Virus record (IMG/VR): IMGVR_UViG_3300020577_006051
Location: 26,245-90,244 of that record
Length of the DNA: 64,000 nt
Reading direction: 5' to 3' (one strand)
Source: a virus
Taxonomy: Duplodnaviria; Heunggongvirae; Uroviricota; Caudoviricetes
In this document: positions 17,385 through 64,000 of the stretch, piece by piece
Layout: each line of letters starts with the position of its first letter
How positions within the stretch are numbered: position 1 is the stretch's first letter
Notes under the pieces: model-generated
Told to the model about the DNA's origin: nothing
The model's input: only the letters and a program-made list of their open reading frames with translations
Databases searched by the model: none
Translations under genes and position numbers: made by a program

Positions 17385-17715
17385 GGATTTGCATATGAGA
17401 CGCGGAAAAGAAATCGCACAGGGTGCTCATGCATCCAATGCGGTTTTAATTGATTCTGTTAAGGCAGGAAAGATGGATTCTGACATCAAAGAATGGATAA
17501 TGAACGGATCAAAGAAGGTTTGTGTCCAGGTCTCATCAGAAGCAGAACTCCTCAAGGTGTATCAAGATGCATGTAAGGCAGGGCTATCAGCACACATCAT
17601 CAGGGATGCCGGTCATACTGAGTTTAATGGTGTACCTACGCTTACTGCATGTGCCATCGGTCCCAACGAAGACAGCGATATCGATGCGGTCACCGGCAGC
17701 TTGCAACTCTACTGA
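17359..17715 (+). CDS. peptidyl-tRNA hydrolase, PTH2 family
   Basis: MKQIIVIRKDLHMRRGKEIAQGAHAS and DAGHTEF...IGP...VTGSLQLY match the PTH2 signature end to end. Confidence 0.9.
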   Translation: MKQIIVIRKDLHMRRGKEIAQGAHASNAVLIDSVKAGKMDSDIKEWIMNGSKKVCVQVSSEAELLKVYQDACKAGLSAHIIRDAGHTEFNGVPTLTACAIGPNEDSDIDAVTGSLQLY

Positions 17716-30394: not shown

Positions 30395-31222
30395 ATGTCT
30401 TCTAAAAAGAGAAAAAATCTAATCAATAGAAGATTTAATAGACTTTTTGTTCTGAGTTTATATAAAACTATACAATACAAAAAGTCTAAAAAAGATTTAT
30501 ATTTATGTAAATGTGATTGTGGAAATTCTATTGTTACTAGAGGTGATTCACTTTTGAATGGTAGAACAAAGTCATGTGGATGCTTTTCTAAAGAAACAAT
30601 AATTAAAAACAACGTAAAAAGAAAAATACCCAATGGTGGGGCTGCTATTAATATGCTTTTTAATAAATATAAAGAGGGCGCGGTCGTAAGAAATTTAGAA
30701 TTTACAATTAACATGGCTTTTTTTAAAAAAATAACCAAACAAAATTGTACATACTGTGGATCAAAACCAAGTCAAATAGCTAAAACTAAATGTAGTTCAT
30801 ATAACTATAATGGAATTGATAGGCAAGATAATTTATTAGGTTATACAAAAGAAAATTGCAAACCTTGTTGCAAAATATGTAATCGTGCAAAAATGGATTT
30901 AAGTTGTACTGAATTCTTAAAATGGATAGAGCAAATAAAATCGATGACATCTATAAAGTGTTTTTATCTTAAAAGAATAAATGATGTTAGTGGAACTAGT
31001 GGAACAGGTATTGTCGCTATTGGTGGTATTTTACCATCAGGTAAATGTATTCTTGAATGGACTAGTTCTGAAATAACCGAAACCATCTTTGAAAGCATCG
31101 ATCAAATCGAAAGAATTCACGGTCATGGCGGCAAAACTCTAGTAATCATGGGGAACCCAAATGAGCAAGAAAAACCAAAAGCAAAAACAAAGTCCAAAAC
31201 AAAAGCAAAAGCCAAAAAGTAA
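30395..31222 (+). CDS. HNH homing endonuclease, CxCDCG/HNH_3 family
   Basis: RFNRLFVLS...LCKCDCGNSIV...SCGC and NGIDRQDNLLGYTKENCKPCCKICNRAK; about 28% GC. Confidence 0.8.
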   Translation: MSSKKRKNLINRRFNRLFVLSLYKTIQYKKSKKDLYLCKCDCGNSIVTRGDSLLNGRTKSCGCFSKETIIKNNVKRKIPNGGAAINMLFNKYKEGAVVRNLEFTINMAFFKKITKQNCTYCGSKPSQIAKTKCSSYNYNGIDRQDNLLGYTKENCKPCCKICNRAKMDLSCTEFLKWIEQIKSMTSIKCFYLKRINDVSGTSGTGIVAIGGILPSGKCILEWTSSEITETIFESIDQIERIHGHGGKTLVIMGNPNEQEKPKAKTKSKTKAKAKK

Positions 31223-37661: not shown

Positions 37662-38168
37662 ATGAGAGCAAAACAAATGCCAGTAATTTACTTTTTAGCT
37701 AGCCTTATCATACATATAGGGCTAATTTTAGGTATTGCCTCTATTCAGCAAACTCAACAAAAACAACAGGCAGAACAGAAACAAGGTCAAGGCCAACCGC
37801 CGCGAGAATCTGTCAAAGTAAAAATCATCGAGAAACCAAAAGAAGAAAATAAAGTTAAGATGAAGATCGCAACTAAGAAAGAACCTAGTAAGACTAAAGT
37901 AGCTGAACCAGAAGTTAAGAACGAAGAGAAATGTCCACAGTTCTACTACGGAATTGGTATCTATACGGATCCAAGCTTGTGTGTCGTGACTAAAGTTTAT
38001 CCAGGTTACTCAGCCGATCGTTCTGGAATAAAACCAGGCGATATGATTTTGATCCCTAACTGTGGATCGATTCGCGGTACAAGAGAAGAGGAATTCGATA
38101 TGACATTGATCCGCCAAGGCGAGATCATTAATTTAAAGATTAATAGGGAGAAAATCTGTGAAGGTTGA
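37662..38168 (+). CDS. membrane-anchored PDZ-domain protein
   Basis: N-terminal TM, Q/K-rich linker, then GIGIYTD...YSADRSGIKPGDMIL PDZ. Confidence 0.55.
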   Translation: MRAKQMPVIYFLASLIIHIGLILGIASIQQTQQKQQAEQKQGQGQPPRESVKVKIIEKPKEENKVKMKIATKKEPSKTKVAEPEVKNEEKCPQFYYGIGIYTDPSLCVVTKVYPGYSADRSGIKPGDMILIPNCGSIRGTREEEFDMTLIRQGEIINLKINREKICEG

Positions 38169-39396
38169 AGATTTTGCTAGAAAAAATACAGTATCTACAA
38201 AAGCAGGTGGAACCCAAAGATGGGAAGTATATGATTCAGCTAAATTAGAGGAATATTTGGCTATTTTTAATTATAAAATTGGACCATTAGCAACCAAACT
38301 AAACCAATCTTACTCCATGATTAGAAGATTGGTAACTTCTAGTGGATTAAAAGAAAAGTGTGATATAAAGCAGCAATCTATAAAAGGCGGAAGACCAAGA
38401 TCTACTAATATTGATAAATTTGGATATGTTTATGCTGAACCAGAACATGACTATATAGATCAAAATGGAGATAAAAAAAGAAAACATTTACATCTAGTTA
38501 TTGCTGAAAAAAAACTTGGACGACCATTAAATGCAAATGAAGTTGTTCATCATATAAATTTAGATAAAGAAGATAATAGACCTGAAAATCTCTATATATG
38601 TGATCAATCTACACACCGCAAGGTACATCAAAATTTGGAACATTTAGCTGCTAGATTAGCCCAAATAGGACAAATAGAATTTGTTCCTGAATTGCAAGAA
38701 TATGTTTTGGTTCAAAATCCACTTAAGTTACAAAAACATATACAAGGTGGTTTTGTTAAAGTAGTCGATGTTCTTGGATCTGACGCAACTGTTGTTAATT
38801 CTGCAAGAGTTTCATTTGGCAAATCAGTTTCTAACATTCGAGATCAAGATAAAAAGCTATTAGATTATTTAGCAAAAAATGGCCATACAAGTCCATTTAG
38901 ACATTGTTATGTTCAGTTACATGTAAAGGCACCAGAGTTTGTTGCTAGACAATGGTATAAACACATAGTCGGTACAGAGTATTCATTTAAAGATCAACCA
39001 TGGAATGAAATTTCTGGACGATATGTTGAGTATGATTTTTCTACTTGGGAACCAGAACATTTACGAAAGCAATCAGCAGATAAAAAACAAGGATCTTCTG
39101 ATGAATATGTTGAACATGAAGCGGAATTAATTGAGCAATATAAAAAGTTTACAAATGACGCTTTTAAATTTTATGAATACTTAATAAGTCAAGGTGTTTG
39201 TAAGGAGCAAGCTAGAACAGTTTTGCCTTTAAATTTTTATACAGAATGGTATTGGACTGCAAGTCTACAATCAATTCAACATTTTGTTAAATTAAGGACA
39301 GACCTACATGCTCAAATTGAAATACAAGATTTTGCATGGGCAGTTAACGAAATGATGGGGCAAATATTTCCAAATGCATGGAAAGCTTTAAGTTAA
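38158..39396 (+). CDS. thyX: HNH endonuclease fused in frame to a flavin-dependent thymidylate synthase (ThyX) domain with non-canonical RHR motif
   Basis: aa 120-160 HNH (VVHHINLDKEDNRPENLYICDQSTHRKVH); aa ~196-412 collinear with T. maritima ThyX; RHR replaced by KHI plus 8-aa insertion. Confidence 0.75.
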   Translation: MKVEDFARKNTVSTKAGGTQRWEVYDSAKLEEYLAIFNYKIGPLATKLNQSYSMIRRLVTSSGLKEKCDIKQQSIKGGRPRSTNIDKFGYVYAEPEHDYIDQNGDKKRKHLHLVIAEKKLGRPLNANEVVHHINLDKEDNRPENLYICDQSTHRKVHQNLEHLAARLAQIGQIEFVPELQEYVLVQNPLKLQKHIQGGFVKVVDVLGSDATVVNSARVSFGKSVSNIRDQDKKLLDYLAKNGHTSPFRHCYVQLHVKAPEFVARQWYKHIVGTEYSFKDQPWNEISGRYVEYDFSTWEPEHLRKQSADKKQGSSDEYVEHEAELIEQYKKFTNDAFKFYEYLISQGVCKEQARTVLPLNFYTEWYWTASLQSIQHFVKLRTDLHAQIEIQDFAWAVNEMMGQIFPNAWKALS

Positions 39397-40071: not shown

Positions 40072-40776
40072 ATGGAAACGATGCCTCTCATTCTACCAAA
40101 AAGCGAAAGTGACGAGATCTGGGTCACAGAGTTTAATCCGCAATCTGCTCAAGAATTTAGAGACCGAGTCTTGGAAGAAGCCAAGAAAGGTCCAGATCGC
40201 CCTATCGTTATCTACATCGACAGCTACGGTGGTCAAGTTGATTCCTTGGCCAAGATGATTGCTACACTAGATGAAGTATCGAATCCTATCGTTACTTGCT
40301 GCATGGGCAAAGCAATGAGCTGTGGTGCTATGTTGTTAGCTCATGGCGATGTCCGTTTCTGTGATAGTCATAGCCGAATTATGGTTCATAAAGTTAGTGC
40401 AATGGCAATGGGTAACGTAGACGATATCGTCACAGACACGGAAGAGATTTCTCGTCTAAATGAATATTGGATGAATGTATTGGCAACGGACTGCGGAATC
40501 AAGGGTGGATATCAGGAATTAAGTGAGATCTTACGTTCTAAGGATGGTCATGAACGTTATTTCACACCGCAAGAAGCTAAGACATTTGGTCTCATCGACA
40601 TTATTGGATTACCAAAGGTTGTTGCTGATACGGTCTACGATGTGGCTACTATTCCTGTCAAAACATCTCCATATAAAGAAAGCAAGTGGCGGGCAAAATA
40701 TAGATCAGAACCCGAAAAGAAAGCACCCCAAACGAAAACTCTTAAAAAGAGTAAAACAAAAGGAGCTAAGAAATGA
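40072..40776 (+). CDS. ClpP-family serine protease
   Basis: IVIYIDSYGGQVDS ... CMGKAMSCGAMLLA ... IMVHKVS; K-rich tail. Confidence 0.8.
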   Translation: METMPLILPKSESDEIWVTEFNPQSAQEFRDRVLEEAKKGPDRPIVIYIDSYGGQVDSLAKMIATLDEVSNPIVTCCMGKAMSCGAMLLAHGDVRFCDSHSRIMVHKVSAMAMGNVDDIVTDTEEISRLNEYWMNVLATDCGIKGGYQELSEILRSKDGHERYFTPQEAKTFGLIDIIGLPKVVADTVYDVATIPVKTSPYKESKWRAKYRSEPEKKAPQTKTLKKSKTKGAKK

Positions 40777-41117
40777 GTGATGATGTTAAGAACCAAGAAG
40801 AGAAAGTTCGCAGCCACAATCTAAAAGAAGTTGTGATTTCTCCAGATGATGCTAAGGCAGCATTTGAATTCTGGCCTCAGTTTAACGTTCCACCTATGGA
40901 AGGCTTAAAAGAAGCTTTTCAACAGTTTCAGAACGATCCAACACTTGAGAATCAAAATTATCTCAAGTACATGGTCACTAAAGCTATCGCAACAACGCAG
41001 CACGAAGCATTCCTAGATCCAACCTTTGAGAAAGTTCGCTCTGAGTGCGCTGATGTAAGTTACGAGATGGCGTTCGACCGTGACTTCCAAAACATCATCG
41101 GCGAGGATAAAACCTAA
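40773..41117 (+). CDS. conserved phage protein, family B (paralog of 8643..8927)
   Basis: see 8643..8927. Confidence 0.6.
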   Translation: MSDDVKNQEEKVRSHNLKEVVISPDDAKAAFEFWPQFNVPPMEGLKEAFQQFQNDPTLENQNYLKYMVTKAIATTQHEAFLDPTFEKVRSECADVSYEMAFDRDFQNIIGEDKT

Positions 41118-50855: not shown

Positions 50856-52265
50856 ATGAGTTCAAAAATTCGTTCTAATTCAGAGATCAACAAGAATCTA
50901 TTAGACAAAGAATTTGTAGAAGTAGAAGAAAAAAGTCGTTGTTTGGCTACCACTATCTTCAATACCGTTAAGTACCATCCATTTATGGGTTCAGTTCTTC
51001 AGTGCTTGAACATCAGCTACAGCCACGCTTTACCAACAGCTGGCATCATGTTCAACACAGACCATAAACGCTGGGATATGCTCGTCAATCCTTATTTCTT
51101 CTGTAAGAAATTAAACGACGCACAACGTAAAGCCGTATTCATCCACGAGCTCAGTCACATCACGCATAAACATCCAATGCGCGTTCCTTTCTTAAAGATC
51201 AGTCCACGCAAGCGCATGCTCATGAATATTGCTGCAGACATGGCAATCAATCAATTCATCCAAGATCTTCCTAATGGTTGTCCACAATGTCCACCAATTC
51301 ATCAACCAGCTAAGTGCACCAACGAGATGTGTCCCGGTCGATGTATCGATGTCAAAGATTACTTCGATCAAGATGAGAACGGCACCAAGACTGCTTGGAG
51401 TCGTAATCAGACGATGGAATATTACTATGACAAATTAGTAAAACGTTTGGACGATCCAAACGACGACAGTGGGGACGGCGAAGGTGAAGGTAGTGGAAAT
51501 GCAGGTGGCGGAGCTAACACTAGTGATCTACCAGACACCATCGATGAGCATATGTGGGATGGAGCATCTGAAGAGAAAGAAATGCTCGATGCTACAGAAG
51601 AACTTATGAAACGTGCGATGGTTAAAGCTCGTCTATCCTACGACGATCTACCAGGACACATTAAAGATCTATTGGAAGACATTAAGACTCGTCGCGCTGA
51701 ACTAAACTACAAAGCGTTGATCATGTCCGCTCTCAAACGCCATGCAAGCGGTCACGATCGCAAGTCAACATGGACACGCAAGTCTAAACGGTTCGGCTTC
51801 AAAGCACCTGGCACAAAGATCGGTGATCTACCTAAGTTACGTGTCTACTGCGACACTTCAGGTTCGATTTCCGTTGAAGAGTTAAATGAGTTCTTGCAGA
51901 TTGTAGATAACTTCTTGAAAGTAGGATCGCGTAAGTGTGAGATCTCTTTCTTTCACACTAAGAACTACGGACATCAACAATACAAACTTGGCTACAAGAT
52001 CGACCGCAAAGAAATTCAATCAGGTGGTACAGAACTTACACCAGTGATGGAAGACATCTTGCGCAAAAAAGCAGATTTCAACGTGATCATCACGGACGGT
52101 TGCTACGATGACGTTAAAGTAGATGAGAAGATGCGACCTGGACAAAAGTTCCCTCAGACTCTATTCATCATCAGTAAAGGGGGCGTCGCAGATCATCCTT
52201 TACAGAGATATGGTGAAACAGTCAAGGTACCTGATTCTGAATCTGGAAAAGGTCGCAAACGTTGA
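50856..52265 (+). CDS. VWA-domain protein with N-terminal HExxH metallopeptidase-like region (DUF2201-like MoxR partner)
   Basis: FIHELSHITHKH; MIDAS LRVYCDTSGSIS; adjacent to MoxR ATPase. Confidence 0.6.
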   Translation: MSSKIRSNSEINKNLLDKEFVEVEEKSRCLATTIFNTVKYHPFMGSVLQCLNISYSHALPTAGIMFNTDHKRWDMLVNPYFFCKKLNDAQRKAVFIHELSHITHKHPMRVPFLKISPRKRMLMNIAADMAINQFIQDLPNGCPQCPPIHQPAKCTNEMCPGRCIDVKDYFDQDENGTKTAWSRNQTMEYYYDKLVKRLDDPNDDSGDGEGEGSGNAGGGANTSDLPDTIDEHMWDGASEEKEMLDATEELMKRAMVKARLSYDDLPGHIKDLLEDIKTRRAELNYKALIMSALKRHASGHDRKSTWTRKSKRFGFKAPGTKIGDLPKLRVYCDTSGSISVEELNEFLQIVDNFLKVGSRKCEISFFHTKNYGHQQYKLGYKIDRKEIQSGGTELTPVMEDILRKKADFNVIITDGCYDDVKVDEKMRPGQKFPQTLFIISKGGVADHPLQRYGETVKVPDSESGKGRKR

Positions 52266-52897
52266 GCAATTTAACTATAGAAAAATTAAATAATTTGGTT
52301 GGCAAAAAGATTAGAATGTTGACTATAGTTAAATTCTCTCATACAACTAATGTCACACATAAAGATAGAATTAGAGTTAAATATTTTTATGAATGTAAAT
52401 GTGATTGCGGAAACATAACCATCGTTAACAGACAACATTTACTTCAAAAACTTGGCAAGTTAACTTATTCTTGCGGTTGCTATCAAAAAGAACAAAGCAA
52501 GATTGGACATGAAAAGCAAAAAGGCGTTGCAAGACCACATGTTCAAAAACCAAATGGAATCTCTGTCTCTCATACTATGTTTCTTGGATATAAAGCTGGC
52601 GCCAATAGAAGAAATATTAATTTTGATATAACAGAACACGAATTTGAAACAATAACAACTCAAAATTGTTTCTACTGCAATCAAGAACCTGTTGAAAAGA
52701 AAAAGAACAAAAGTGAACATGCAGTAAGAAAAATGAACGGTATCGATAGAATTAACTCTAATGTTGGTTATACAGTAAGCAATTGTGTGCCTTGTTGCAA
52801 AATATGTAATTACATGAAGCAAGAACTATCAACTTCTGAATTTTACGATCACTTATTAAAGATTGTACAATTCAAATCGTTGGGAGATAATAAATGA
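52262..52897 (+). CDS. HNH homing endonuclease, CxCDCG/HNH_3 family
   Basis: IRMLTIV...YECKCDCGNITIV...SCGC and NGIDRINSNVGYTVSNCVPCCKICNYMK; AT-rich. Confidence 0.8.
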   Translation: MSNLTIEKLNNLVGKKIRMLTIVKFSHTTNVTHKDRIRVKYFYECKCDCGNITIVNRQHLLQKLGKLTYSCGCYQKEQSKIGHEKQKGVARPHVQKPNGISVSHTMFLGYKAGANRRNINFDITEHEFETITTQNCFYCNQEPVEKKKNKSEHAVRKMNGIDRINSNVGYTVSNCVPCCKICNYMKQELSTSEFYDHLLKIVQFKSLGDNK

Positions 52898-54547: not shown

Positions 54548-55159
54548 ATGGAAGAATTTATCACGTCAGAAGAAGTCGAATCACTCTCTAAGAGTGAGAT
54601 TGAAGAAATCGAAGAACTCGCTAAGAAATGTCCACGCTGTGGAGGCAAGTCTGCCAATCCCGGAAATCCTGCAGGTCGCTGCAGAGCTCATCTAAATAAA
54701 CTAGCAAAAGATAAGAAGACACCTGGTCACTGGCAACGTGCTCAAACCAAAGCCGATGATGCATTGCGTCGTCAGGATGGTAAGAACGGCACAGCTAGTC
54801 ATAAGTCAAGTGGACGCGGTTCACGCGAATCCATCGTTAAACAAACACAAGCAGCAGAGAAAAAGCACGGCCAAAAACTAAGTCCAGATCGTAAGGATAA
54901 CAGTAAAGGTTACGCTGCTAAGAACACGCGCATGGTTCCAGAGAAGCTGAATCGTGGTCGCCATACCGTAGATCCCAAAAAATTAAAAGCATGGAAGAGC
55001 CGCTTAAAGAAGTCTGAGATCAGCAATGAGTTGTTCTATACTTCCTTACTGGCTAAGGCTGCACAAGAAGACAATGAAGAGTTATTGACACTGCTACAGA
55101 CACTAACACCGGACGAAGCTGTCGAGCTTGTTGATTCACTGGAGATTCTGGACTCGTAA
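54548..55159 (+). CDS. zinc-ribbon protein with degenerate HNH_3-like C-terminal module (cysteines lost)
   Basis: CPRCGG...CRAH; LSPDRKDNSKGYAAKNTRMVPEKLNRGRH follows the IDRxDNxxGYTxxNxxPCCxxCN pattern with C replaced. Confidence 0.5.
   Translation: MEEFITSEEVESLSKSEIEEIEELAKKCPRCGGKSANPGNPAGRCRAHLNKLAKDKKTPGHWQRAQTKADDALRRQDGKNGTASHKSSGRGSRESIVKQTQAAEKKHGQKLSPDRKDNSKGYAAKNTRMVPEKLNRGRHTVDPKKLKAWKSRLKKSEISNELFYTSLLAKAAQEDNEELLTLLQTLTPDEAVELVDSLEILDS
55085..55099 (+). promoter_or_regulatory. intragenic near-copy of the conserved box (TTGACACTGCTACag)
   Basis: 13/15 match at the 3' end of 54548..55159, ~75 nt upstream of the next gene. Confidence 0.3.
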
Positions 55160-55169
55160 AGGAGCTAGA

Positions 55170-55622
55170 TTGGGTACTAAAGCTGATTTCTATATCAAAC
55201 GTGGCGAAGAATTAGAATGGCGTGGAAGCATCGAATGGGACGGACAAGAAGATAAAATACCTGAGAACATACTAAGAGCTACTAACGAACAAGAATTTCA
55301 AGAAAATCTGGATGCTTTCTTCAAGAGAAAGCCTGACTCTGTTGGTCCAGACAAGCCATGGCCATGGCACTACGACTCATCTAAGTTTACAGACTTCTGC
55401 TACATCATGTGGGAAGAGAAGGGTAAACTCGTAATCTCGCACTTCAACAGCCAAACGTACACTATCTATCAATATAGAAAGTATATGGAACGTATGAAAG
55501 CGGATAAGGATAACATGGAGAACTTCGATTCTTACTTGAAGAAAGTGGGCGATTTCAGACCAGTGTTTCCTATCATGAACAAACTTATGGCTGCTCTTAA
55601 GCAGAACACCGAAAAGAAATAA
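55170..55622 (+). CDS. hypothetical protein
   Basis: in frame with listed 55128..55622; TTG at 55170 sits 5 nt after a perfect AAAGGAG SD. Confidence 0.45.
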   Translation: MGTKADFYIKRGEELEWRGSIEWDGQEDKIPENILRATNEQEFQENLDAFFKRKPDSVGPDKPWPWHYDSSKFTDFCYIMWEEKGKLVISHFNSQTYTIYQYRKYMERMKADKDNMENFDSYLKKVGDFRPVFPIMNKLMAALKQNTEKK

Positions 55623-55662
55623 GATCGTACAATAACAATATCTGAGAATCAAGAGGAACATC

Positions 55663-56178
55663 ATGACTGTGTTGCTATTCGTTTATGTGTTTGTAATGGG
55701 TTTCGCGATGGGATTTTTAGTACAAAACCTTATCGAATACTATCGTGCAAAGCAACGTAAGAAAGCAGTCACTAAGTTAATAGATGCTATTAAAAAATAC
55801 GCGTCTAACGTAACAGACAACATTCCTGAATCAGTTCTTGAGCGCCTTAAGCGAGCACAGAAGATCGAGTCAGAACAGCTAGAGATGGCGTATGCAAACG
55901 AAGGTCCCCAGCGCGGTATCTTAGACGGTCGCAGCCGCAACCAGATCTCTGGTCAGATTAAGAAGCTGTCAGAAGAAAAATTAGAACTATTACAATCTAT
56001 CTTGAGAGAAGGTCACGATCCGTCGATTACCGTAATGAACGAAGGTAAACGCGAGAACATGAAACTTTCTGAGTACATGAAATTGAACAACAAGGTATAT
56101 TCTGAAGATACGGCCGAAGAAAAACCCGTAGAGAAACCAAAGACTAAGTTAACCCTCGTTAAGAATAAGGATGAGTGA
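55663..56178 (+). CDS. membrane-anchored hypothetical protein
   Basis: N-terminal TM helix then charged helical region. Confidence 0.5.
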   Translation: MTVLLFVYVFVMGFAMGFLVQNLIEYYRAKQRKKAVTKLIDAIKKYASNVTDNIPESVLERLKRAQKIESEQLEMAYANEGPQRGILDGRSRNQISGQIKKLSEEKLELLQSILREGHDPSITVMNEGKRENMKLSEYMKLNNKVYSEDTAEEKPVEKPKTKLTLVKNKDE

Positions 56179-56645
56179 TGCCAAATACTGTAGCCATCGT
56201 CACTAGTCGATGTTTCGTACTAGCAAAAGCAATCAACAATATCGTGATTCGCCCAAACATGGATCACTACGGTAGCAAACCAGTAATGTTCTACGACATC
56301 CATATCGACTATATTCCAGAAGATCATGGTAATCAAAACAACAGCCATCGTAACGGCGAAGGTCAAAATGTTGTAGTTGTTCGTGTTCGCGGTGAACAAT
56401 CTGCTCTAAAGTTATTCAAAGAGTTGGTTCAACAGATGCGCGAGCAGATGCCAGATCAAGTTTATCTAGATAAGATGGTCGAGAACATCTTAGACGGTAA
56501 GAAAGATATCTTTGACGCTGCAGAAGAACAAGAGAAAGTTAAGGTTCGTCTTCGTAAAGACATCGATAAAGCACTCAGGAAACTTGGTAAATCTAAACCC
56601 ACCAAGAAGAAAACTGTCAAGAAAAAAGCTAAAAAGAAAAAATAA
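56175..56645 (+). CDS. hypothetical protein with lysine-rich tail
   Basis: ends KSKPTKKKTVKKKAKKKK. Confidence 0.5.
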   Translation: MMPNTVAIVTSRCFVLAKAINNIVIRPNMDHYGSKPVMFYDIHIDYIPEDHGNQNNSHRNGEGQNVVVVRVRGEQSALKLFKELVQQMREQMPDQVYLDKMVENILDGKKDIFDAAEEQEKVKVRLRKDIDKALRKLGKSKPTKKKTVKKKAKKKK

Positions 56646-56678
56646 TCCGATCGTATCCCTTCTATGGAGGGATATCAG

Positions 56679-57407
56679 ATGTCAGTTTTCCAAGATAAAA
56701 TTTACAAACAGATGGATTGGCTCTCTCAAGCAACAGAGCCATATCAACTTAAGATAATCACTGCACTAGCAGAATTACCAGAAGTAGTTGAATTATCATA
56801 TAAAGATATCATGATGCTGGTGTCTAAAAACTACAGTTCAGAACTCAATCCACATAATGTAATATCAAAAATGTTCCCTGAAATTTCAGCTCGCTTTAAC
56901 TTTGATGAAAGAGTTATGTTTCGAAATGTTACAAAATGCTTCAATGTTGGCATGAGCGAAGGTGCATACTTGGACTTTGAGGAGGGTAAGTTACACGGTT
57001 CGGTTACCATTATCAAGATAAAAGATCACTTTACGGATATGGAATGTAGAGAACTGATAGCCAGTGAATGTTTAGATAAATTGTCTCTACTAGATCCTAC
57101 TTTAGCAAAAGCAGGCAGAATGAAAGCCGTTCTTGAAATCATAGGAATTCCTGTGGTTGCAGACGACTTTGAGCCAGATCAAAAAGAATCGCCATACGTT
57201 ATCAGATCTATCTTGTCAAAGAAGATGAGAACTCTAATTCTAGAAGATAAGATTCGCTTTAGAACTTTACAAGCAGCTAACACTTTCATGGATAACGTAC
57301 GAGGATACGTAAATGAGATGAAAGAGTCTAGTCTAGCTAACATAATGAAAGTAGTTATAATAGCTAGAAACAATCAGCCTATATACATAGGAGATGAAGA
57401 TGTATAA
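56679..57407 (+). CDS. hypothetical protein
   Basis: in frame with listed 56664..57407; ATG at 56679 follows a GGAGGG SD. Confidence 0.5.
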   Translation: MSVFQDKIYKQMDWLSQATEPYQLKIITALAELPEVVELSYKDIMMLVSKNYSSELNPHNVISKMFPEISARFNFDERVMFRNVTKCFNVGMSEGAYLDFEEGKLHGSVTIIKIKDHFTDMECRELIASECLDKLSLLDPTLAKAGRMKAVLEIIGIPVVADDFEPDQKESPYVIRSILSKKMRTLILEDKIRFRTLQAANTFMDNVRGYVNEMKESSLANIMKVVIIARNNQPIYIGDEDV

Positions 57408-57912
57408 CGAATTTATCGCTTATCTTGAAGGGTTTAAGCCTGTCTCTAAGAGAGTGCTACTGATTAAGTCAGATGTAGATAGTGTGTCTCTTCAGCTTGA
57501 AAATTCAAACGTTATGAATCCAAATCCACCAAACGAGATCTTTGATGAGCTGTTGTCTAACTATCGTAAGTATGCTAGTTTATTGCCATCTAAGCAAAAG
57601 GTTGTATTCAGCTATGAGCACATAGTCTCTTCTATGACTCAAGATATATTTAAACAGTTCGTTAGCATCTGGTGTAGAGTCAATAATAAGAAGGAGTTCT
57701 ATCGCACAAATACAGGTAAAAATTCAAGACAGATCGAGAATCTTTCTGAAAAAATACTTGGATTATACTTTAAAAATCATACCGAAGGTATATTGACACG
57801 ATACAAGCTCGGATCAAATCCACAATTAGACAAACAACTCTCCAAACAATTTGAGGACATGGTAAATGGTAACAAACAAAACCGGTCGCGTTCTAACAGA
57901 TCAAGATATTAA
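57394..57912 (+). CDS. hypothetical protein
   Basis: 172-aa ORF. Confidence 0.5.
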   Translation: MKMYNEFIAYLEGFKPVSKRVLLIKSDVDSVSLQLENSNVMNPNPPNEIFDELLSNYRKYASLLPSKQKVVFSYEHIVSSMTQDIFKQFVSIWCRVNNKKEFYRTNTGKNSRQIENLSEKILGLYFKNHTEGILTRYKLGSNPQLDKQLSKQFEDMVNGNKQNRSRSNRSRY

Positions 57913-58264
57913 GAAATATGAGCCGATGATCGAACGTTACATCCGTGATTACGTCATCAAGAATTGGAAAGAAGCAAAAGCGGGCAAGAACAACGGTGAG
58001 ATCAGTCTGGGTAACACCGGCATGACTGTCAACGATATTCGTCAACATCTCAAGGCTGAACTCTGTATTGCCCTCTACAACTTCAATCCTAATTATGTAA
58101 CCAAAGAAGGTCGCACAGTTAAAGAGTCGACTTTTGTATATCGTCACATCTTCAACCGTATCGGTCAAACATTGAAGCGTTTGACTAAGAAACGTTACGG
58201 TTACGGCGTTCGAACAGCAAACATCGATGACATTCTCAATGAGAATTACGGAGATGAAGTGTGA
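57866..58264 (+). CDS. candidate late sigma factor (T4 gp55-like)
   Basis: ALYNFNPNYVTKEGRTVKESTFVYRHIFNRIGQTLKRLTKKRY resembles gp55 [34 protein letters not shown]. Confidence 0.4.
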   Translation: MVTNKTGRVLTDQDIKKYEPMIERYIRDYVIKNWKEAKAGKNNGEISLGNTGMTVNDIRQHLKAELCIALYNFNPNYVTKEGRTVKESTFVYRHIFNRIGQTLKRLTKKRYGYGVRTANIDDILNENYGDEV

Positions 58265-58983
58265 GTGGCAAACTATCGCTAGCTATCATGAATGATCAAG
58301 AACCAATTGCCTACAATGCAGAAGTGGTTTTTAAAAATGTAATGGGTCAGATAGCTAGTGGTATTTTGTTGCAGGACGATAGTTGGTGTGATGTTCATGA
58401 ATTTGAAGTAGTTTCTTACAATAGTAGTTCAGTATTCTTCCCAAAGAAAGGTGAAATCATAGCTGGTTCAGCAGTTAGTTCCACCTGGTCCAATTTGTCG
58501 CCTTCAGACATGGATGTGTATTTCAATACCTACGATCAAATCGTTGAATTTGTAAGGGCTAATGAAGGTCGCAATCTTTTAGATACAGAAATACAAGCTC
58601 TAAATAAAAGCAAAAATGTTCACATAAGTTTCGGTCGCACAGTCATTAATGCAATACTTTATGACTTTAAGTCTGAAATCGACATCATCAGCAAGTTCGA
58701 CATCAGAGCTTCGTCCATGGCATTCAATCCACAAACTAGTAAATTATTCACTATCAATAGTGCAATAGAAGACGCTATGGCTAGAAGAATAGTATTCAAT
58801 CCATTCCCTAATCGGACTTCATTGTGCAGGTTATTGAAGTATATTCAGAAAGGTTACGAGATCGACAGATATCAAATGGCGGTCTTTACAGAACTTATCA
58901 AGAATCCAACAATACATAACGCAACAGTAGAACTAACTACTGGCCAATATGGAGCAATCACAGACGATGAAATCCCATTCTAA
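58261..58983 (+). CDS. hypothetical protein
   Basis: 240-aa ORF upstream of dCMP hydroxymethylase. Confidence 0.5.
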   Translation: MSGKLSLAIMNDQEPIAYNAEVVFKNVMGQIASGILLQDDSWCDVHEFEVVSYNSSSVFFPKKGEIIAGSAVSSTWSNLSPSDMDVYFNTYDQIVEFVRANEGRNLLDTEIQALNKSKNVHISFGRTVINAILYDFKSEIDIISKFDIRASSMAFNPQTSKLFTINSAIEDAMARRIVFNPFPNRTSLCRLLKYIQKGYEIDRYQMAVFTELIKNPTIHNATVELTTGQYGAITDDEIPF

Positions 58984-59740
58984 TGTTCATGAGGCATATC
59001 TCAGCACCCTAAAAGACGTCTGGTTCAATCCTGAACACAAATCTGCACCACGTGGTTTGGCAATCAGAGAATGTCTCGATTATTCTTTTAGGATCACGAA
59101 TCCTGTGGCAGAACCAATCGTCACGAACGATCTTGAGCGCAATAAGACTATCGCAGAGTACACAGCAAAAGAAGTAGCGTTATATGACAGCTGCTCCAAT
59201 AAAGTAGAAGATTTTGCCAAAGCTAGTAAGTTCTGGAACCAGATCGCTAATCCAGATGGCACGATCAACTCTGCTTATGGTTATCTGATCTGGAAAAATC
59301 GCAGCTGCGGCAATGCTTATTACCAATTTAGCGGCAACGGTGGACCAACGTTGATACCTGCAGAATTTAACATCGGTATGCATACTCCATGGGAGTGGGC
59401 TAAGCAAAGTCTTATCAAGGATAAAGATACTCGTCAAGCTATCTTGCGCTTCAGCTTACCTGAACATCAGTGGGAAGGCGTTAAGGACTTTACCTGTACC
59501 ATGTATGGCAACTTCTTAATAAGAGATGATAAATTACATTTTAGTGTCTTTATGAGAAGCAACGATATGGTAAAAGGTTTCACATACGATGTTCCGTGGT
59601 TTATTAGCTTAATGGATCGAATGATCGAAGAATTAAAACCTACATATCCAGATCTAACTAAAGGTAACTATACTCACACTGCAAATAGTATTCATGTGTA
59701 TGAAAAAGACGAACAAATTGTTTTAAAGATGTTAGGTTGA
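58949..59740 (+). CDS. dCMP hydroxymethylase (T4 gp42-like, thymidylate-synthase fold)
   Basis: FWNQIANPDGTINSAYGYLIW, DFTCTMYGNFLIRDDKL (Cys183), FMRSNDMVKGFTYDVPWF with Asp214; C-to-D spacing 31 as in T4 gp42. Confidence 0.8.
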   Translation: MEQSQTMKSHSNVHEAYLSTLKDVWFNPEHKSAPRGLAIRECLDYSFRITNPVAEPIVTNDLERNKTIAEYTAKEVALYDSCSNKVEDFAKASKFWNQIANPDGTINSAYGYLIWKNRSCGNAYYQFSGNGGPTLIPAEFNIGMHTPWEWAKQSLIKDKDTRQAILRFSLPEHQWEGVKDFTCTMYGNFLIRDDKLHFSVFMRSNDMVKGFTYDVPWFISLMDRMIEELKPTYPDLTKGNYTHTANSIHVYEKDEQIVLKMLG

Positions 59741-60180
59741 TAATGACTAGAGGTAAACCAAGAAATTACATTTGTGAAGTATGCAGCAAAGAATTTGTAG
59801 CTCATAGAAGTGATAAAAGATACTGTGGACACAACTGTATGCGGAATAGTGTTCAAAACAAAAAATATCTTGCTAATTTTGCCAGAAATAGTGGTGGGAA
59901 ATGGGCTGCAATCAAACATAAAGCAAGTAAATTCAATGTTCCGCTAACTCTAACTTTAGAAGAATGTAAAATACTATGGTTAAAACCTTGTGAATATTGT
60001 GGTAAAGAAATTAATTCTACTGGCGTAAGTTTAGATCGTTTAGATAATAGTGGTGGTTACACAAAAGACAATGTAGTTCCTTGTTGTGGGCCATGCAATA
60101 AAATTAAAAATATTTACTTAACCCACGACGAAATGAAAGCTGCAATGGAAGCTGTTTTAAAATTAAGAGGTAATCAATGA
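59737..60180 (+). CDS. HNH homing endonuclease, HNH_3 family
   Basis: Zn ribbon CEVC...CGHNC; CEYCGKE...SLDRLDNSGGYTKDNVVPCCGPCNKIKN; AT-rich. Confidence 0.8.
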   Translation: MIMTRGKPRNYICEVCSKEFVAHRSDKRYCGHNCMRNSVQNKKYLANFARNSGGKWAAIKHKASKFNVPLTLTLEECKILWLKPCEYCGKEINSTGVSLDRLDNSGGYTKDNVVPCCGPCNKIKNIYLTHDEMKAAMEAVLKLRGNQ

Positions 60181-60494
60181 AAATCTTTGTTTGTTCACCT
60201 TATCGTGGTGATGTTAAAAACAACGTTAAGAACGCGCAAGATTATTGCAAATGGGTCGTTAAGCAAGGCCACATTCCATTCGCTCCTCACCTTATCTATC
60301 CGCAGTTTCTAGATGACAATGTTGAATCAGAACGTAACGCCGGTATTCAAGCTGGTAAAACTTTCATGCTTGACTGTGATGCTGTGTGGGTTTTTGGCAG
60401 CAAGATGACTTCTGGAATGAAGCACGAAGTTAACTATGCTCAAGAGAATGACATCGAAGTTCGTTTCTTTCATGATGAGGAACTTAGTTTATGA
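60177..60494 (+). CDS. DUF4406 / nucleoside 2-deoxyribosyltransferase-fold protein
   Basis: MKIFVCSPYRGD ... LDCDAVWVFGSKMTSGMKHEVNYAQENDIEV matches the DxCDAVxxLxGWxxSxGAxxE pattern. Confidence 0.55.
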   Translation: MKIFVCSPYRGDVKNNVKNAQDYCKWVVKQGHIPFAPHLIYPQFLDDNVESERNAGIQAGKTFMLDCDAVWVFGSKMTSGMKHEVNYAQENDIEVRFFHDEELSL

Positions 60495-61012
60495 GTTTGT
60501 GGGAACAACTATTTGGATCCAAAATAGAAGATAATTCTCAGCAGCAGTTAACTACTAGCACACAAGGTACACAATTGCAAATAACTACACCAAACTACAG
60601 TACCCCCAACATGCAAATTCCTGGTGGTTTCGTAATCAACAGAGATCCACCAAGAACACCACAAGAGATCGAAGATCTTAAGAACAGTTACGCAACAGAT
60701 CGCAATAACGTATTTAAGGCGTTACCGTCAAGTGCTAGAGAGCTGTTGATCAATAAAGCAACAATTAAAAATGCCAAACATAAACTTGCTCAATTAGAGC
60801 GATCTCATGAATGGCAGCGTTATCAAAAAGAACAGCAGTGGGAAATGTTTGGCAGAATGTCTGGCAAATCACCCATTGACTTTTTCCATAATGGATACTC
60901 TTCAATGATTGGATATCCACTTTCAGTTGACGAGTATGATCTTGGATTCTCTTTAGAAGAGATGATAAAACTACACACAGAAGCCACAGTAGAAGAAAAT
61001 TTAATGGGTTAA
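60491..61012 (+). CDS. hypothetical protein
   Basis: 173-aa ORF. Confidence 0.5.
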   Translation: MSLWEQLFGSKIEDNSQQQLTTSTQGTQLQITTPNYSTPNMQIPGGFVINRDPPRTPQEIEDLKNSYATDRNNVFKALPSSARELLINKATIKNAKHKLAQLERSHEWQRYQKEQQWEMFGRMSGKSPIDFFHNGYSSMIGYPLSVDEYDLGFSLEEMIKLHTEATVEENLMG

Positions 61013-61014
61013 TA

Positions 61015-61887
61015 ATGACTATATCTGAAACAACTAAACATAAACTAGACTTAATTAAGCAGGTTATGAAGGATCAGTTTGATCGTGATCCTAAAAACCA
61101 AAAACTATTATTAAAGTGGGCTGCTCAATATAGTGGACTTAAAGTTGGGGATATTTTAGTTGCTAAATCAGGCAATCTTGAAATTCAAAACACAAATAAA
61201 GCTGTCAGAAAATTTAAAGTATTAGATATAGATCAAGATACTGAAATCTTATTAGCTGGCGAAATCATCATCCCCAACAAAATAGGAACAGTATTTCCGC
61301 TATTTTATTATGACACAGACAGTCTTACTTACGGTGGATGGACAGGTTTTCCACGAATGTTGACTTACTATATTTCTTTCAAAGATCAAGATGGGGTGTA
61401 TTCTTACAAGAACCACTGTCAACTTACATTTGAATTAGATAGTGGTGCTGTATTTCACACCATCTTAGATCAAGAAGGCACTTATGATGCCCTTGAGAAA
61501 AATAAGAGAAACAATGATATCGCAAAAGAAATTAAAGCCTACAACAAAGAAAATCGCATAGTTGATCCAGATCATAAAGCTTCGAGCATTCACACATACT
61601 TAACTAAAGCAGCTCCTGGCGAAGTTATGTGGCGAAGTGCTAAGAATAAATTAACTATTAAAACAATAAAGAAAATTCCTGTTAGCCCCAACAATAGACA
61701 CTCTTGGTATTACATGGATAGAGTATTCGACGAAAACAAGGGAAAATATATCAACACTTGGTTCGCACCAAATGATTTTGAAATCACATTCGAAGAGAAT
61801 GATGAAACTTGGATCATAGAAGATTTTCACAATAAAAATCTATTTAGGAATCCACCTCGCTCTCGAAAAGAAATACCAAACGAATAA
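61015..61887 (+). CDS. hypothetical protein
   Basis: 290-aa ORF. Confidence 0.55.
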   Translation: MTISETTKHKLDLIKQVMKDQFDRDPKNQKLLLKWAAQYSGLKVGDILVAKSGNLEIQNTNKAVRKFKVLDIDQDTEILLAGEIIIPNKIGTVFPLFYYDTDSLTYGGWTGFPRMLTYYISFKDQDGVYSYKNHCQLTFELDSGAVFHTILDQEGTYDALEKNKRNNDIAKEIKAYNKENRIVDPDHKASSIHTYLTKAAPGEVMWRSAKNKLTIKTIKKIPVSPNNRHSWYYMDRVFDENKGKYINTWFAPNDFEITFEENDETWIIEDFHNKNLFRNPPRSRKEIPNE

Positions 61888-61920
61888 ATCCGATTCGATC
61901 GATCCCTAAACGGAGGACAC

Positions 61921-62457
61921 ATGGCTAAGAAAGCAAAAACAAGTACGGCGGTTACACCTGTTCCGGTAGTGCCAGTACAAGCACCATTATCTAGTTTACC
62001 GGTTCGCGAAGATGAAGATTTTATTGCTGAGATCGAAACAATGGATCTTAGCGAACTCAAAGACAAAACTTACCTTGTCTCTGTTAACAGAGAAGATCGC
62101 AATAAGGGTTTGTTTCTCTGTACTACGGTTCGTGGACCTTACACCTTCGAAGAGATGTGTGAAGAAGTTGGCCATATGTGGGAAACACAGCAACACCATG
62201 CAAAAGTAGTTATCTGTGAAAAAGATCGCAAAAAACCAATCAAAACCTTAGATGAGAATACTGTAGACTATATTGAAGCTCACTACGCAGACATCATCAC
62301 TGAATCTATGCTAGAAGGTGTATTTGACTCTCAGAAAGAATATACTTGTCGCGCTGGGATCAAGGAACAAGATCTTAAAGAAGAACCTAAGAAGGTTGCT
62401 GAAGTGAAGGCTCTTGGCGAGAAAACTGACATCGACGACGAAGATGAGGACTTTTAA
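61921..62457 (+). CDS. hypothetical acidic protein
   Basis: 178-aa ORF with GGAGG SD. Confidence 0.55.
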   Translation: MAKKAKTSTAVTPVPVVPVQAPLSSLPVREDEDFIAEIETMDLSELKDKTYLVSVNREDRNKGLFLCTTVRGPYTFEEMCEEVGHMWETQQHHAKVVICEKDRKKPIKTLDENTVDYIEAHYADIITESMLEGVFDSQKEYTCRAGIKEQDLKEEPKKVAEVKALGEKTDIDDEDEDF

Positions 62458-62459
62458 TC

Positions 62460-62963
62460 ATGGGTGCCGACATTCATCTCTACATCGAAACTAGATTATC
62501 TCCTAACGATGAGTGGAGCACAGACAACTTTCACAGTCTAGAATCAAGCACGGAAGAAGACGATGAAGGTGAAGAGTATCAAGACACATATCTGATCCCC
62601 AAACACAGCAAGTATCACTATTCCTACGGTGGTCGTAACTATGAGATGTTTGGAATTCTGGCAGATGTTAGAGGTAAAGGTTGTCTCTATCAACCAAGAG
62701 GCATACCTAAAGACGTAGCTAAAAGCACTAAGAAAGAGATCGACCGGATGGATTCAGACGGTCATAGCCATAGCTATTTATCTCTAAAAGAGTTTAAAGA
62801 ATGTCTAAATGTTTACACAAAGGCAACTGATTATCGCGATACAGAATATGAAGCCATATACGACATAGCTTTAGAATGGCTCAACATGGAACAAGCAGAA
62901 GCTAAAATATTAGAAACCGGATTTGAACCTGAAATTAGATTCGTGTTCTTCTTTGATAATTGA
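62460..62963 (+). CDS. hypothetical protein
   Basis: 167-aa ORF. Confidence 0.55.
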   Translation: MGADIHLYIETRLSPNDEWSTDNFHSLESSTEEDDEGEEYQDTYLIPKHSKYHYSYGGRNYEMFGILADVRGKGCLYQPRGIPKDVAKSTKKEIDRMDSDGHSHSYLSLKEFKECLNVYTKATDYRDTEYEAIYDIALEWLNMEQAEAKILETGFEPEIRFVFFFDN

Positions 62964-62970
62964 GGTCCCA

Positions 62971-63324
62971 ATGACAACGTTCGACGACATCGTAAAGAAA
63001 GTTCTAGCAAATAAGAACCCACCTGTCGTAGCAACTATTGACACAACGGTTCCTCCACCTGTTCGTCTTAAAAAAGCTAAGAAGCCTAAACCAAAATCAG
63101 AATTGGTTGGCGAATTTACAGATCAAGATTACCCAATTCAAGAACTAGCACCAGATACAGATCCATGCCAAGTGTGTGGGAAACCCTCCAAAGTTGGAGC
63201 TCACGGAATTCGCGAAGGTAAAGTATATAGTGAATACTACTGTTTTGCACATTACAATGCAAAACCAGGCACAACCTTAACAAGAGAAAGCGAAGAACCA
63301 GATGAACAAGCTCCCAGTACTTGA
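62971..63324 (+). CDS. hypothetical protein with CxxC ... C ... H cluster
   Basis: in frame with listed 62923..63324; ATG at 62971 follows a GAGGT SD. Confidence 0.45.
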   Translation: MTTFDDIVKKVLANKNPPVVATIDTTVPPPVRLKKAKKPKPKSELVGEFTDQDYPIQELAPDTDPCQVCGKPSKVGAHGIREGKVYSEYYCFAHYNAKPGTTLTRESEEPDEQAPST

Positions 63325-63829
63325 TGATGGTTACGTAACACTACTCTCCAGTACGATCCCAAACAAAAAATACAAAGATGTCTTAGATAACTTCTTTCAA
63401 GCAACGCCAACAGAGTCATTGCGTCAAGCGTGTTTCTTAGTTATGGCTATTCGCTGTCCTATATTCGTTCAGCTAATATTTGCACAGCACGGTTTAACTC
63501 TGATCTCAACTAGAGACAACAAGTTAACCACCTATAGACCTAACGCTGGTGAAATCGGCGGTTCAGATCACGCCAACAATAAGATGATCGCAGAAGATAT
63601 TGCAGCAACTTCAGAAGCTCTAACTGTCAACCCAAATGCTTATCAAGCTGATGGATGTGACAAATTCATATCACAGATTATTCTCCCTATCAGCACTTAC
63701 TCTACATTTATCGTGAGTGGTACATTAGACAAGTGGCAAAAATTCTATACAAATCAGAATGTGCCTGCGCCAATTAAGAGTTATGCTATGGTTATTGAAC
63801 AAGTAGTGAGAGCAGAATACAATGTCTAA
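63302..63829 (+). CDS. divergent ThyX-fold protein lacking the catalytic RHR..S motif
   Basis: LPVLDDGYVTLL / DILDKGFVELV; RCPIFVQLIFAQHGLTLIS aligns to KAPIFVARQWFRHRIAS with no RHR; ILPISTYSTFIVS matches VLPLNLYTRFFWT. Confidence 0.55.
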   Translation: MNKLPVLDDGYVTLLSSTIPNKKYKDVLDNFFQATPTESLRQACFLVMAIRCPIFVQLIFAQHGLTLISTRDNKLTTYRPNAGEIGGSDHANNKMIAEDIAATSEALTVNPNAYQADGCDKFISQIILPISTYSTFIVSGTLDKWQKFYTNQNVPAPIKSYAMVIEQVVRAEYNV

Positions 63830-64000
63830 GAAAAAGAACACCGGTATTAAAATTCCAACTGAAAACATGGTTGAAGAAATCTCATACAGAGATGTAGAGT
63901 TCGTTTGTCCAGTTCGTGGCAAAGTAACTCAAAAGGTCAAAGTAGTTAAGCTAAAACCATACATTCCTAGCACCAAGGATGTAACTATGACTAGCGATCC
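63822..64000 (+). CDS. hypothetical protein (5' partial, runs off window)
   Basis: ATG at 63822 overlapping the upstream stop; open to window end. Confidence 0.45.
   Translation, partial: MSKKKNTGIKIPTENMVEEISYRDVEFVCPVRGKVTQKVKVVKLKPYIPSTKDVTMTSD

Follow-up and report, generated by a model that had tools for sequence, protein, structure and literature searches.

A predicted T4-type dCMP hydroxymethylase and its gene neighborhood in an uncultured phage lineage

The phage DNA analyzed here, a stretch of 64 kb referred to below as the window, encodes a thymidylate synthase (TS)-fold protein that is reasonably likely to be a T4-type deoxycytidylate 5-hydroxymethyltransferase whose modified nucleotide enters the phage DNA. 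Because this protein bears the active-site signature of T4 dCMP hydroxymethylase, the phage DNA probably contains 5-hydroxymethylcytosine (5hmC). The fold, the signature and its conservation, a separate ThyX, and a conserved neighborhood are all observed features of the sequence (Table 1). The original prediction was of 5hmC-containing DNA produced by a hydroxymethylation module; the signature and its conservation back the predicted hydroxymethylase, but the neighboring genes that had been put forward as new chemistry are mostly not conserved.

Table 1. Features of the predicted hydroxymethylase locus and related genes (window coordinates unless a contig is named)
Feature	Coordinates	Strand	Evidence or remark
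Membrane GT2	10263..11507		Sole glycosyltransferase found in 67 kb
Ribonucleotide reductase (RNR) large subunit	35697..37484	-	Deoxynucleotide supply; Pfam Ribonuc_red_lgC 1.4e-93
Genuine flavin-dependent ThyX with N-terminal HNH_3 domain	38158..39396	+	Pfam Thy1 1.1e-42, HNH_3 1e-9; PHROG 85 2e-53
p132, highly conserved, upstream of module	57866..58264	+	Up to 69% identity, 36 loci
Gad2-like protein, directly upstream of TS-fold ORF	58261..58983	+	Pfam PF26128; PHROGs of unknown function
TS-fold dCMP C5-hydroxymethylase homologue (predicted 5hmdCMP synthase)	58949..59740	+	Pfam, PHROG, and PDB searches
Asp180 codon	59486..59488	+	E. coli ThyA L143, T4 D145
Cys183 codon (TGT), catalytic nucleophile	59495..59497	+	E. 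coli C146, T4 C148
Arg203-Ser204-Asn205-Asp206	59555..59566	+	E. coli R166-S167-C168-D169; identical to T4 RSND
Asp214 codon (GAT), cytosine-specificity residue	59588..59590	+	E. coli N177, T4 D179
HNH homing-endonuclease-like ORF, inserted between TS-fold gene and DUF7768	59737..60180	+	PHROG 1035/3322/3118
DUF7768/nucleoside 2-deoxyribosyltransferase (NDT)-like protein, 105 aa, accessory gene	60177..60494	+	DUF7768 3e-40
p173	60491..61012	+	Among 86 loci, in this genome only
p290	61015..61887	+	Weak paralogue of 243-aa gene preceding dCMP deaminase
p178, conserved	61921..62457	+	Between TS homologue and ThyX-like gene in 33 loci
p167	62460..62963	+	PHROG 10141 (unknown function); 16 loci, variable positions
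p133, 117 aa with the called start at 62971	62923..63324	+	Among 86 loci, in this genome only
ThyX-fold pseudoenzyme, 175 aa, downstream of TS homologue in lineage	63302..63829	+	Profile and structure evidence
Zinc-ribbon-like ORF, 80 aa (start; cut by window end)	63822..64000	+	Contig L002
dCMP deaminase	L002 9878..10891		Contig identical to window; just past window end
UDG-family gene, minimal protein	L002 10884..11297		Contig identical to window

The open reading frame (ORF) encodes 263 aa, or 257 aa from the start at 58967 chosen by gene callers, which is likely the true one. It matched Pfam Thymidylat_synt (PF00303) with an E value of 1.6e-11 and 44.3 bits (cut-off, 24.3 bits) and PHROG 160 at 6e-33. 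PDB matches spanned 245 residues, consistent with a ThyA fold, and were led by the CMP hydroxymethylase MilA (4.3e-18) and T4 dCMP hydroxymethylase (8.6e-18); the highest-scoring true thymidylate synthase followed at 6.9e-6, placing hydroxymethylases ahead by 12 orders of magnitude. The family has at least 1210 metagenomic homologues, and members carry the JGI label thymidylate synthase.

Residues were placed by HMMER alignment and by MAFFT alignment with T4 gp42 and E. coli ThyA, and both alignments, together with the PDB match, bear out the proposed correspondence to T4 gene 42. As predicted from the DNA at the outset, the nucleophile Cys183 and Asp214 fall on T4 C148 and D179 with the T4 spacing of 31 residues, and the specificity position holds Asp rather than the Asn of thymidylate synthases, as it does in every homologue examined. 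All three positions diagnostic of the T4 5hmdCMP-synthase type match, with Asp at L143, D169, and N177 (E. coli numbering). The hallmarks of canonical ThyA, namely, Asn177, a hydrophobic residue at L143, and a closing segment at the C terminus, are missing: Asp214 and Asp180 occupy the first two positions, and in the alignment with E. coli ThyA the protein ends 13 residues past the HxY motif. The signature D180/C183/R203-S204-N205-D206/D214 was without variation in 21 aligned homologues and was present in 75 of the 80 IMG/VR metagenomic homologues examined. According to residue rules that are correlative and mostly derived from Straboviridae, an acidic residue at the L143 position goes with hydroxymethyl rather than methyl products and admits water (PMC13326640).

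That position bears directly on whether the product could instead be 5-methyl-dCMP, made by an Xp12-type dCMP methyltransferase and giving phage DNA with 5mC rather than 5hmC. Asp at N177 alone turns a thymidylate synthase into a dCMP methylase (mutagenesis, cited in PMC13326640), and Xanthomonas phage Xp15 has a homologue with 30% identity. We nevertheless regard a methyltransferase as improbable, given that our protein shares with T4 gp42 and MilA an Asp, and not a bulky hydrophobic residue, at the L143 equivalent, that the TS C-terminal segment is absent, and that hydroxymethylases lead the PDB ranking.

The RSND motif addresses a flavin-dependent 5-hydroxy-dCMP synthase, whose 5-hydroxycytosine would be glycosylated later in the DNA. 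RB69 gp48 and DLP3 gp80 resemble the protein studied here in being TS-fold phage enzymes for dCMP that have N177D and an acidic residue at L143, but they use flavin and O2 and carry D169N (PMC13326640), the mark of 5-hydroxy-dCMP synthases such as that of RB69 (PMC13326640). Our protein retains Asp206, invariant in its family, in a motif like that of T4, whereas RB69 gp48 aligned here reads RSQN; further, Pfam and PHROG scans found no glycosyltransferase or NDP-sugar genes nearby. An enzyme of this type is thus very unlikely.

The genomic context is one of deoxynucleotide metabolism. Besides RNR and a genuine ThyX, a dCMP deaminase whose HAE/PCxxC motifs are intact is encoded about 5 kb downstream of the TS-fold ORF, and together these make the TS-fold enzyme dispensable for dTMP. 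Hence, although JGI names family members thymidylate synthase and a dCMP deaminase could be the source of dUMP for an enzyme of that kind (PMC8989533), the protein is hardly credible as a dUMP hydroxymethylase of an hmU pathway or as an ordinary thymidylate synthase: the specificity residue is consistently Asp and not Asn, ThyX already covers dTMP synthesis, and true thymidylate synthases reach only 7e-6 in the PDB search. The deaminase gene is kept downstream in about 30 of the roughly 35 loci sharing this lineage's gene order. TS and dCMP deaminase domains also co-occur on cytosine-modified contigs of uncultured viruses (MetaGPA, PMC8670742), but a carbamoyltransferase and a PRA-PH/MazG-type pyrophosphohydrolase domain are frequent additions on those contigs (PMC8670742), and neither was seen here.

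For the T4-type pathway that we favor, we infer what the enzyme makes, that this enters the DNA, and how much cytosine it replaces, as follows. Cys183 would attack C6 of dCMP, while Asp214 would read and protonate the N3/N4 face of cytosine and exclude dUMP; the one-carbon unit would come from methylene-tetrahydrofolate. In the open acidic pocket (Asp180), water would add to the exocyclic methylene, yielding 5-hydroxymethyl-dCMP and no methyl group. The dCMP deaminase of the same gene block would provide dUMP for the ThyX that the phage itself encodes. The phage polymerase would incorporate the hydroxymethyl nucleotide once it had been phosphorylated, such that some or all C would become 5hmC.

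Pfam and PHROG scans detected no dNMP kinase, dCTPase/MazG, or dUTPase, and no match to DNA glycosyltransferase or carbamoyltransferase families, in the 67 kb covered (the window plus 3 kb; about one-third of the source contig, which is 96.8 kb long, lies outside, as probably does more of the genome); therefore, the steps taking hmdCMP into DNA and excluding dCTP are unseen. The missing kinase and dCTPase, MilA as the top PDB match, an NDT-superfamily gene two genes downstream, and the conserved deaminase would all fit a route in which the hydroxymethylated cytosine nucleotide does not replace cytosine in bulk DNA but, for example, yields a MilA/MilB-like free base via DUF7768, serves as a dCMP sink, or is deaminated to hmdUMP. 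We consider this doubtful. The DUF7768 gene adjoins a TS homologue in only 1 of the 86 loci compared, that of this genome, and any pairing is therefore not the function of the TS family, whereas in 34 other loci, from other lineages, the same family adjoins a dNMP kinase resembling thymidylate kinase, which is the enzyme expected to act next in a pre-replicative pathway. MilA (PDB 5JNH) shares Asp at the L143 and N177 positions, but it acts on a ribonucleotide in mildiomycin biosynthesis (Streptomyces) and is paired with the N-glycosidase MilB, whereas here the neighbor with the NDT fold is unconserved and the setting is the deoxynucleotide metabolism of a phage. Because MilA, a CMP enzyme, scores as well as T4 gp42, sequence alone would fit a preference for either ribose or deoxyribose.

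The likeness to T4 gp42 (PDB 1B5E/1B49) extends to the TS fold, the nucleophilic Cys, the RSND phosphate/folate motif, the specificity Asp, the acidic residue three positions before Cys, and the short C terminus, and a phage dCMP deaminase accompanies the enzyme in both systems. The two proteins differ in sequence (about 29% identity) and by a 25-residue insertion after the Y110 region. Thymidylate here comes from ThyX and not from a ThyA-type td; gp56 dCTPase, gp1 dNMP kinase, and alpha/beta-glucosyltransferase were not seen in the 67 kb; and the phage belongs to an unrelated, uncultured lineage.

From 57000 to 64000, neither terminators nor an excess of promoters was found, which fits one transcription unit. 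The TS-fold gene closes a block of early/middle genes that are tightly packed and share one orientation. The Gad2-like gene occupies the same position in nine loci, and p132 had no Pfam or PHROG match. Downstream, the gene order first read from the DNA (an NDT-like gene, five ORFs, and the ThyX-fold gene) holds, with the HNH ORF as an addition. Members of this HNH family recur at 1260..1679, 30395..31222, and 52262..52897 and at the N terminus of the dCMP deaminase ORF. Past the zinc-ribbon-like ORF, contig L002 continues with a 243-aa ORF, the dCMP deaminase gene, and the gene for the UDG-family glycosylase.

The NDT-like gene had been labeled a DUF4406/NDT-fold protein. Its membership in an NDT-like family stands, with a match to PHROG 355, "nucleoside 2-deoxyribosyltransferase" (2e-28), in agreement with NDT/DNPH1/MilB superfamily profiles, but DUF4406 was sub-threshold (0.028) and DUF7768 takes its place. 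That it might replace the T4 dCTPase finds no support in its singular co-location with a TS homologue. The proposal that the five ORFs at 60491..63324 further modify hmC fares no better: three of them are absent or nearly so from relatives (two singletons and one in 3 loci). The conserved p178 is a fold-orphan.

The ThyX-fold gene is a different case. It matched nothing by sequence in Pfam, BLASTP, or PDB searches and fell below the Pfam Thy1 threshold; profile and structure evidence confirmed the ThyX fold, and the degeneracy noticed initially is complete, every catalytic motif being lost. In an alignment with four ThyX sequences, the FAD/dUMP-binding motifs and the Arg and His residues are all replaced or deleted across the family; the HETPFEH helix, the RHR and SxRY motifs, and the Arg equivalents of T. 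maritima R147 and R174 are gone, and the protein is shorter than ThyX (about 220 aa). Even so, the gene has kept its place next to the hydroxymethylase gene in about 35 loci, and neither it nor p132 had a match in the phage records searched. This conserved pseudoenzyme is the sole unusual piece of the module. It is conceivable, if unlikely, that the hydroxymethylase and lineage-specific partners (the pseudoenzyme, p178, and the minimal UDG-family protein) replace or extend the T4 set. On one such reading, the ThyX-derived protein would serve a dNTP-synthesis complex as a nucleotide-binding or regulatory subunit, or would have a new activity on hmdCMP; on another, the UDG-like enzyme would distinguish pyrimidines in DNA that are modified from those that are not. 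Either reading, if true, would give a pathway for hmC or a derivative with components new to description.

The TS-fold enzyme itself is an additional case of the known T4-type pathway, and the gain is incremental because that pathway is textbook knowledge and modified environmental contigs bearing TS/deaminase pairs have already been published. If our reading is true, a widespread, wholly uncultured group of 100- to 180-kb phages makes cytosine-modified DNA. The group comprises more than 1200 protein clusters, every named one of which is labeled "thymidylate synthase," and a systematic misannotation would thus be corrected, with a bearing on sequencing, restriction-based methods, and host defense. 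Of all the pieces, only the ThyX-fold protein without catalytic motifs could lead to something new.

The TS-fold protein had been aligned with the T4 dCMP hydroxymethylase, and Pfam, PHROG, the ranking of solved structures, and a residue alignment all confirmed this observation. The protein exceeds the Pfam thymidylate synthase threshold and matches PHROG 160 (6e-33); its closest solved structures (PDB) are the CMP hydroxymethylase MilA (4e-18) and the dCMP hydroxymethylase T4 gp42 (9e-18), whereas the best true thymidylate synthase reaches only 7e-6. Its active-site residues, with those aligned in E. coli ThyA and T4 gp42 in parentheses, are E75 (E58 and E60), D180 (L143 and D145), C183 (C146 and C148), R203-S204-N205-D206 (R166-S167-C168-D169 and RSND), and D214 (N177 and D179), and the placement of the Cys183 and Asp214 codons at 59495-59497 and 59588-59590 in the original prediction proved exact in this alignment. 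According to work published by the Weigele and Peters groups in 2026, dCMP-acting phage ThyA homologues form classes separable by active-site residues: N177D makes them specific for dCMP, an acidic residue in place of L143 accompanies non-methyl (hydroxymethyl) products, and D169N is the mark of 5-hydroxy-dCMP synthases that depend on flavin, RB69 gp48 among them (PMC13326640). In our alignment, RB69 gp48 has RSQN at the site where both the window protein and T4 have RSND, and the window protein therefore carries the full T4-type signature, which is invariant in an alignment of 21 relatives and was recovered by pattern search in 75 of 80 IMG/VR homologues. Since these residue rules are correlative, the product is one that we infer, 5hmdCMP being a well-grounded prediction.

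The nucleotide metabolism genes of this phage are consistent with such a role. Its genuine ThyX (Thy1, 1.1e-42) is a single 412-aa ORF with a fused N-terminal HNH_3 endonuclease domain, and the window also encodes a ribonucleotide reductase, so that dTMP synthesis does not depend on the TS-fold enzyme. The dCMP deaminase encoded downstream carries HAE and PCxxC motifs and would supply ThyX with dUMP, like the cd gene in T4. In MetaGPA, TS and dCMP deaminase domains were linked with cytosine-modified viral contigs (PMC8670742). Pfam and PHROG scans of the window, which covers about two-thirds of the 96.8-kb source contig and probably a smaller share of the genome, detected no dNMP kinase, dCTPase/MazG, dUTPase, or DNA glycosyltransferase. 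The best-supported reading is a cytosine C5-hydroxymethylation enzyme, from which 5hmC-type DNA is predicted, and we hold this reading to be moderately probable; the main doubts are that the kinase and dCTPase steps were unseen and that the residue rules are correlative. The ribonucleotide reductase gene, among the very few on the minus strand, sits in the second most GC-rich 2-kb patch of the window (0.449 versus about 0.38), which suggests a recent acquisition.

Features of the window and of compared loci, with the number of the 86 loci in which each was found
Feature	Sequence	Coordinates	Strand	Loci
HNH family copy	window	1260..1679
Paralogous unknown pair 1	window	2602..3177 and 16106..16705
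Paralogous unknown pair 2	window	8643..8927 and 40773..41117
PTH2 peptidyl-tRNA hydrolase	window	17359..17715
Polynucleotide kinase-phosphatase	window	19206..20078
RNA ligase	window	23750..24865
HNH family copy	window	30395..31222
Ribonucleotide reductase	window	35697..37484	-
Genuine ThyX	window	38158..39396	+
HNH family copy	window	52262..52897
p132	window	57866..58264	+	36
Gad2-like	window	58261..58983	+	9
TS-fold protein	window	58949..59740	+
HNH ORF (family copy)	window	59737..60180		8
DUF7768	window	60177..60494		1
p173	window	60491..61012		1
p290	window	61015..61887		3
p178	window	61921..62457		33
p167	window	62460..62963		16
p133	window	62923..63324		1
ThyX-like	window	63302..63829		33
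p243	L002	9157..9888		17
HNH family copy	L002	9878..10450
dCMP deaminase	L002			45
UDG-like	L002	10884..11297		28
SLOG/DprA-like	L005	14383..14742
ORF with UDG-like motifs	L046	9106..10050

The window is made up of small phage genes in a one-directional array, and in 57866..64000 the ORFs abut or overlap, with no terminator-like sites and with fewer promoter-like sites than in shuffled sequence. Neither Rfam nor a tRNA scan gave a match in the window. An 11.9-kb Logan contig (L002), 100% identical to window positions 55071..64000, reaches 2.9 kb beyond the window end, where it encodes an 80-aa zinc-ribbon ORF, a 57-aa ORF, the 243-aa p243, a 337-aa HNH-plus-dCMP-deaminase ORF, and a 137-aa UDG-superfamily ORF, beyond which gene direction reverses. 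One HNH homing-endonuclease family (PHROG 1035/3118/3322) is present in at least five copies, and one copy is continuous with the dCMP deaminase, by fusion or read-through, in an ORF of 337 aa compared with 150 aa in relatives. Unknown proteins form two paralogous pairs in the window, the first pair with 49% identity over 174 residues and with both members ending in LQAKYSNQ. The peptidyl-tRNA hydrolase, polynucleotide kinase-phosphatase, and RNA ligase genes, all within 8 kb, look like a tRNA-repair or anti-anticodon-nuclease set.

We compared 86 loci carrying a TS homologue (4 found by looking up the exact protein, 80 by scanning IMG/VR, the best phage-database match, and L002). About 35 of them have the gene order p247, p132, (Gad2-like), TS, p178, ThyX-like, p243, dCMP deaminase, and UDG-like. 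The low locus counts of the DUF7768 gene and of most of the five unannotated ORFs indicate that these are variable filler amid conserved genes. Neither the proposal that the NDT-fold gene takes the place of a dCTPase nor that of the unannotated ORFs as hmC hypermodifiers found support in conservation, domains, or folds; a PDB sequence search with the DUF7768 protein was uninformative, and a literature search on DUF4406/DUF7768 returned nothing relevant. The p132 protein, always encoded just upstream of the TS gene, is as conserved as the hydroxymethylase (up to 69% identity) and had no Pfam, PHROG, or phage-database match. The Gad2-like gene, at the same position wherever it was found, lies directly upstream of the hydroxymethylase gene and overlaps its start; its precomputed Pfam assignment is Gad2 (anti-Gabija, PF26128), and our local Pfam copy gave no match. 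The p290 and p243 proteins resemble paralogues with an N-terminal domain in common, and one relative (L003) has three copies of this type around its ThyX-like gene.

The ThyX-like ORF gave no match to Pfam, to PDB sequences, or, by BLASTP, to the genuine ThyX of the window; its fold is visible by profile and structure only. A profile built from seven homologues retrieved 111 cluster representatives from a library of 1.8 billion proteins, and its weakest significant matches (E values of 2e-5 to 8e-4) are genuine Thy1 proteins. When 72 family members were aligned with ThyX sequences (MAFFT), the two aligned end to end, with the HETPFEH helix deleted and RHR, SxRY, and both downstream Arg motifs lost from the family. 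The description of this gene as a degenerate ThyX was therefore right: it encodes a ThyX-fold pseudoenzyme or neofunctionalized paralogue, and the phage holds a real ThyX and a degenerate one 24 kb apart. The retained residues are mainly structural, which favors a binding or scaffold role. The conserved Cys119 was considered as a new nucleophile and rejected, as the closest homologues have Ala there. A literature search on ThyX with hmC phages found nothing relevant.

In 34 loci of other lineages, the same TS family adjoins a thymidylate-kinase-like dNMP kinase, the next enzyme required by a pre-replicative modification pathway. The neighbors of the Asp-type TS are complementary, with the kinase in 34 loci, the ThyX-fold pseudoenzyme in 33, and both in 0 of the 86. 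We considered reading this pattern as a replacement of the kinase by the pseudoenzyme and rejected that argument as unsupported, since loci with the one and loci with the other belong to different phage lineages, so simple shared ancestry can explain the complementarity, which is probably a lineage effect.

The minimal UDG-superfamily gene starts about 1.95 kb beyond the window end, directly after the dCMP deaminase gene. The GSNPS and PHPSG motifs of its product are invariant among 20 distinct homologues, and a PDB sequence search gave no match. At the site that it occupies in most relatives, L005 has a 119-aa SLOG/DprA-like gene after the dCMP deaminase gene, and the locus yielded no UDG-like gene. 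In another lineage (L045 to L049), an ORF that precedes the TS homologue by about 0.9 kb clusters with dNMP kinases; in L046 it had no Pfam match and has UDG-like motifs (FFVGDQ and HPSW) in its C-terminal part, so that UDG-like domains would be associated with the TS family in two independent cases.

The TS family comprises at least 1,210 clusters at 90% identity, on contigs of up to 178 kb, and its members carry the JGI label "thymidylate synthase." Neither megablast of 56000..64000 against GenBank phages nor tblastn against phage records with the ThyX-like and p132 proteins gave a match, which indicates a lineage without a cultured relative of known DNA chemistry. The locus of the best phage-database match (L001, from LR756500.1; 41% identity) has only the TS gene in common and no synteny. 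The predicted enzyme belongs to a known pathway type, in an uncultured lineage whose neighboring genes are without match among the phage records searched, and the most notable features of this lineage are its conserved pseudoenzyme of the ThyX fold and its minimal gene of the UDG family, the invariant motifs of the latter included.
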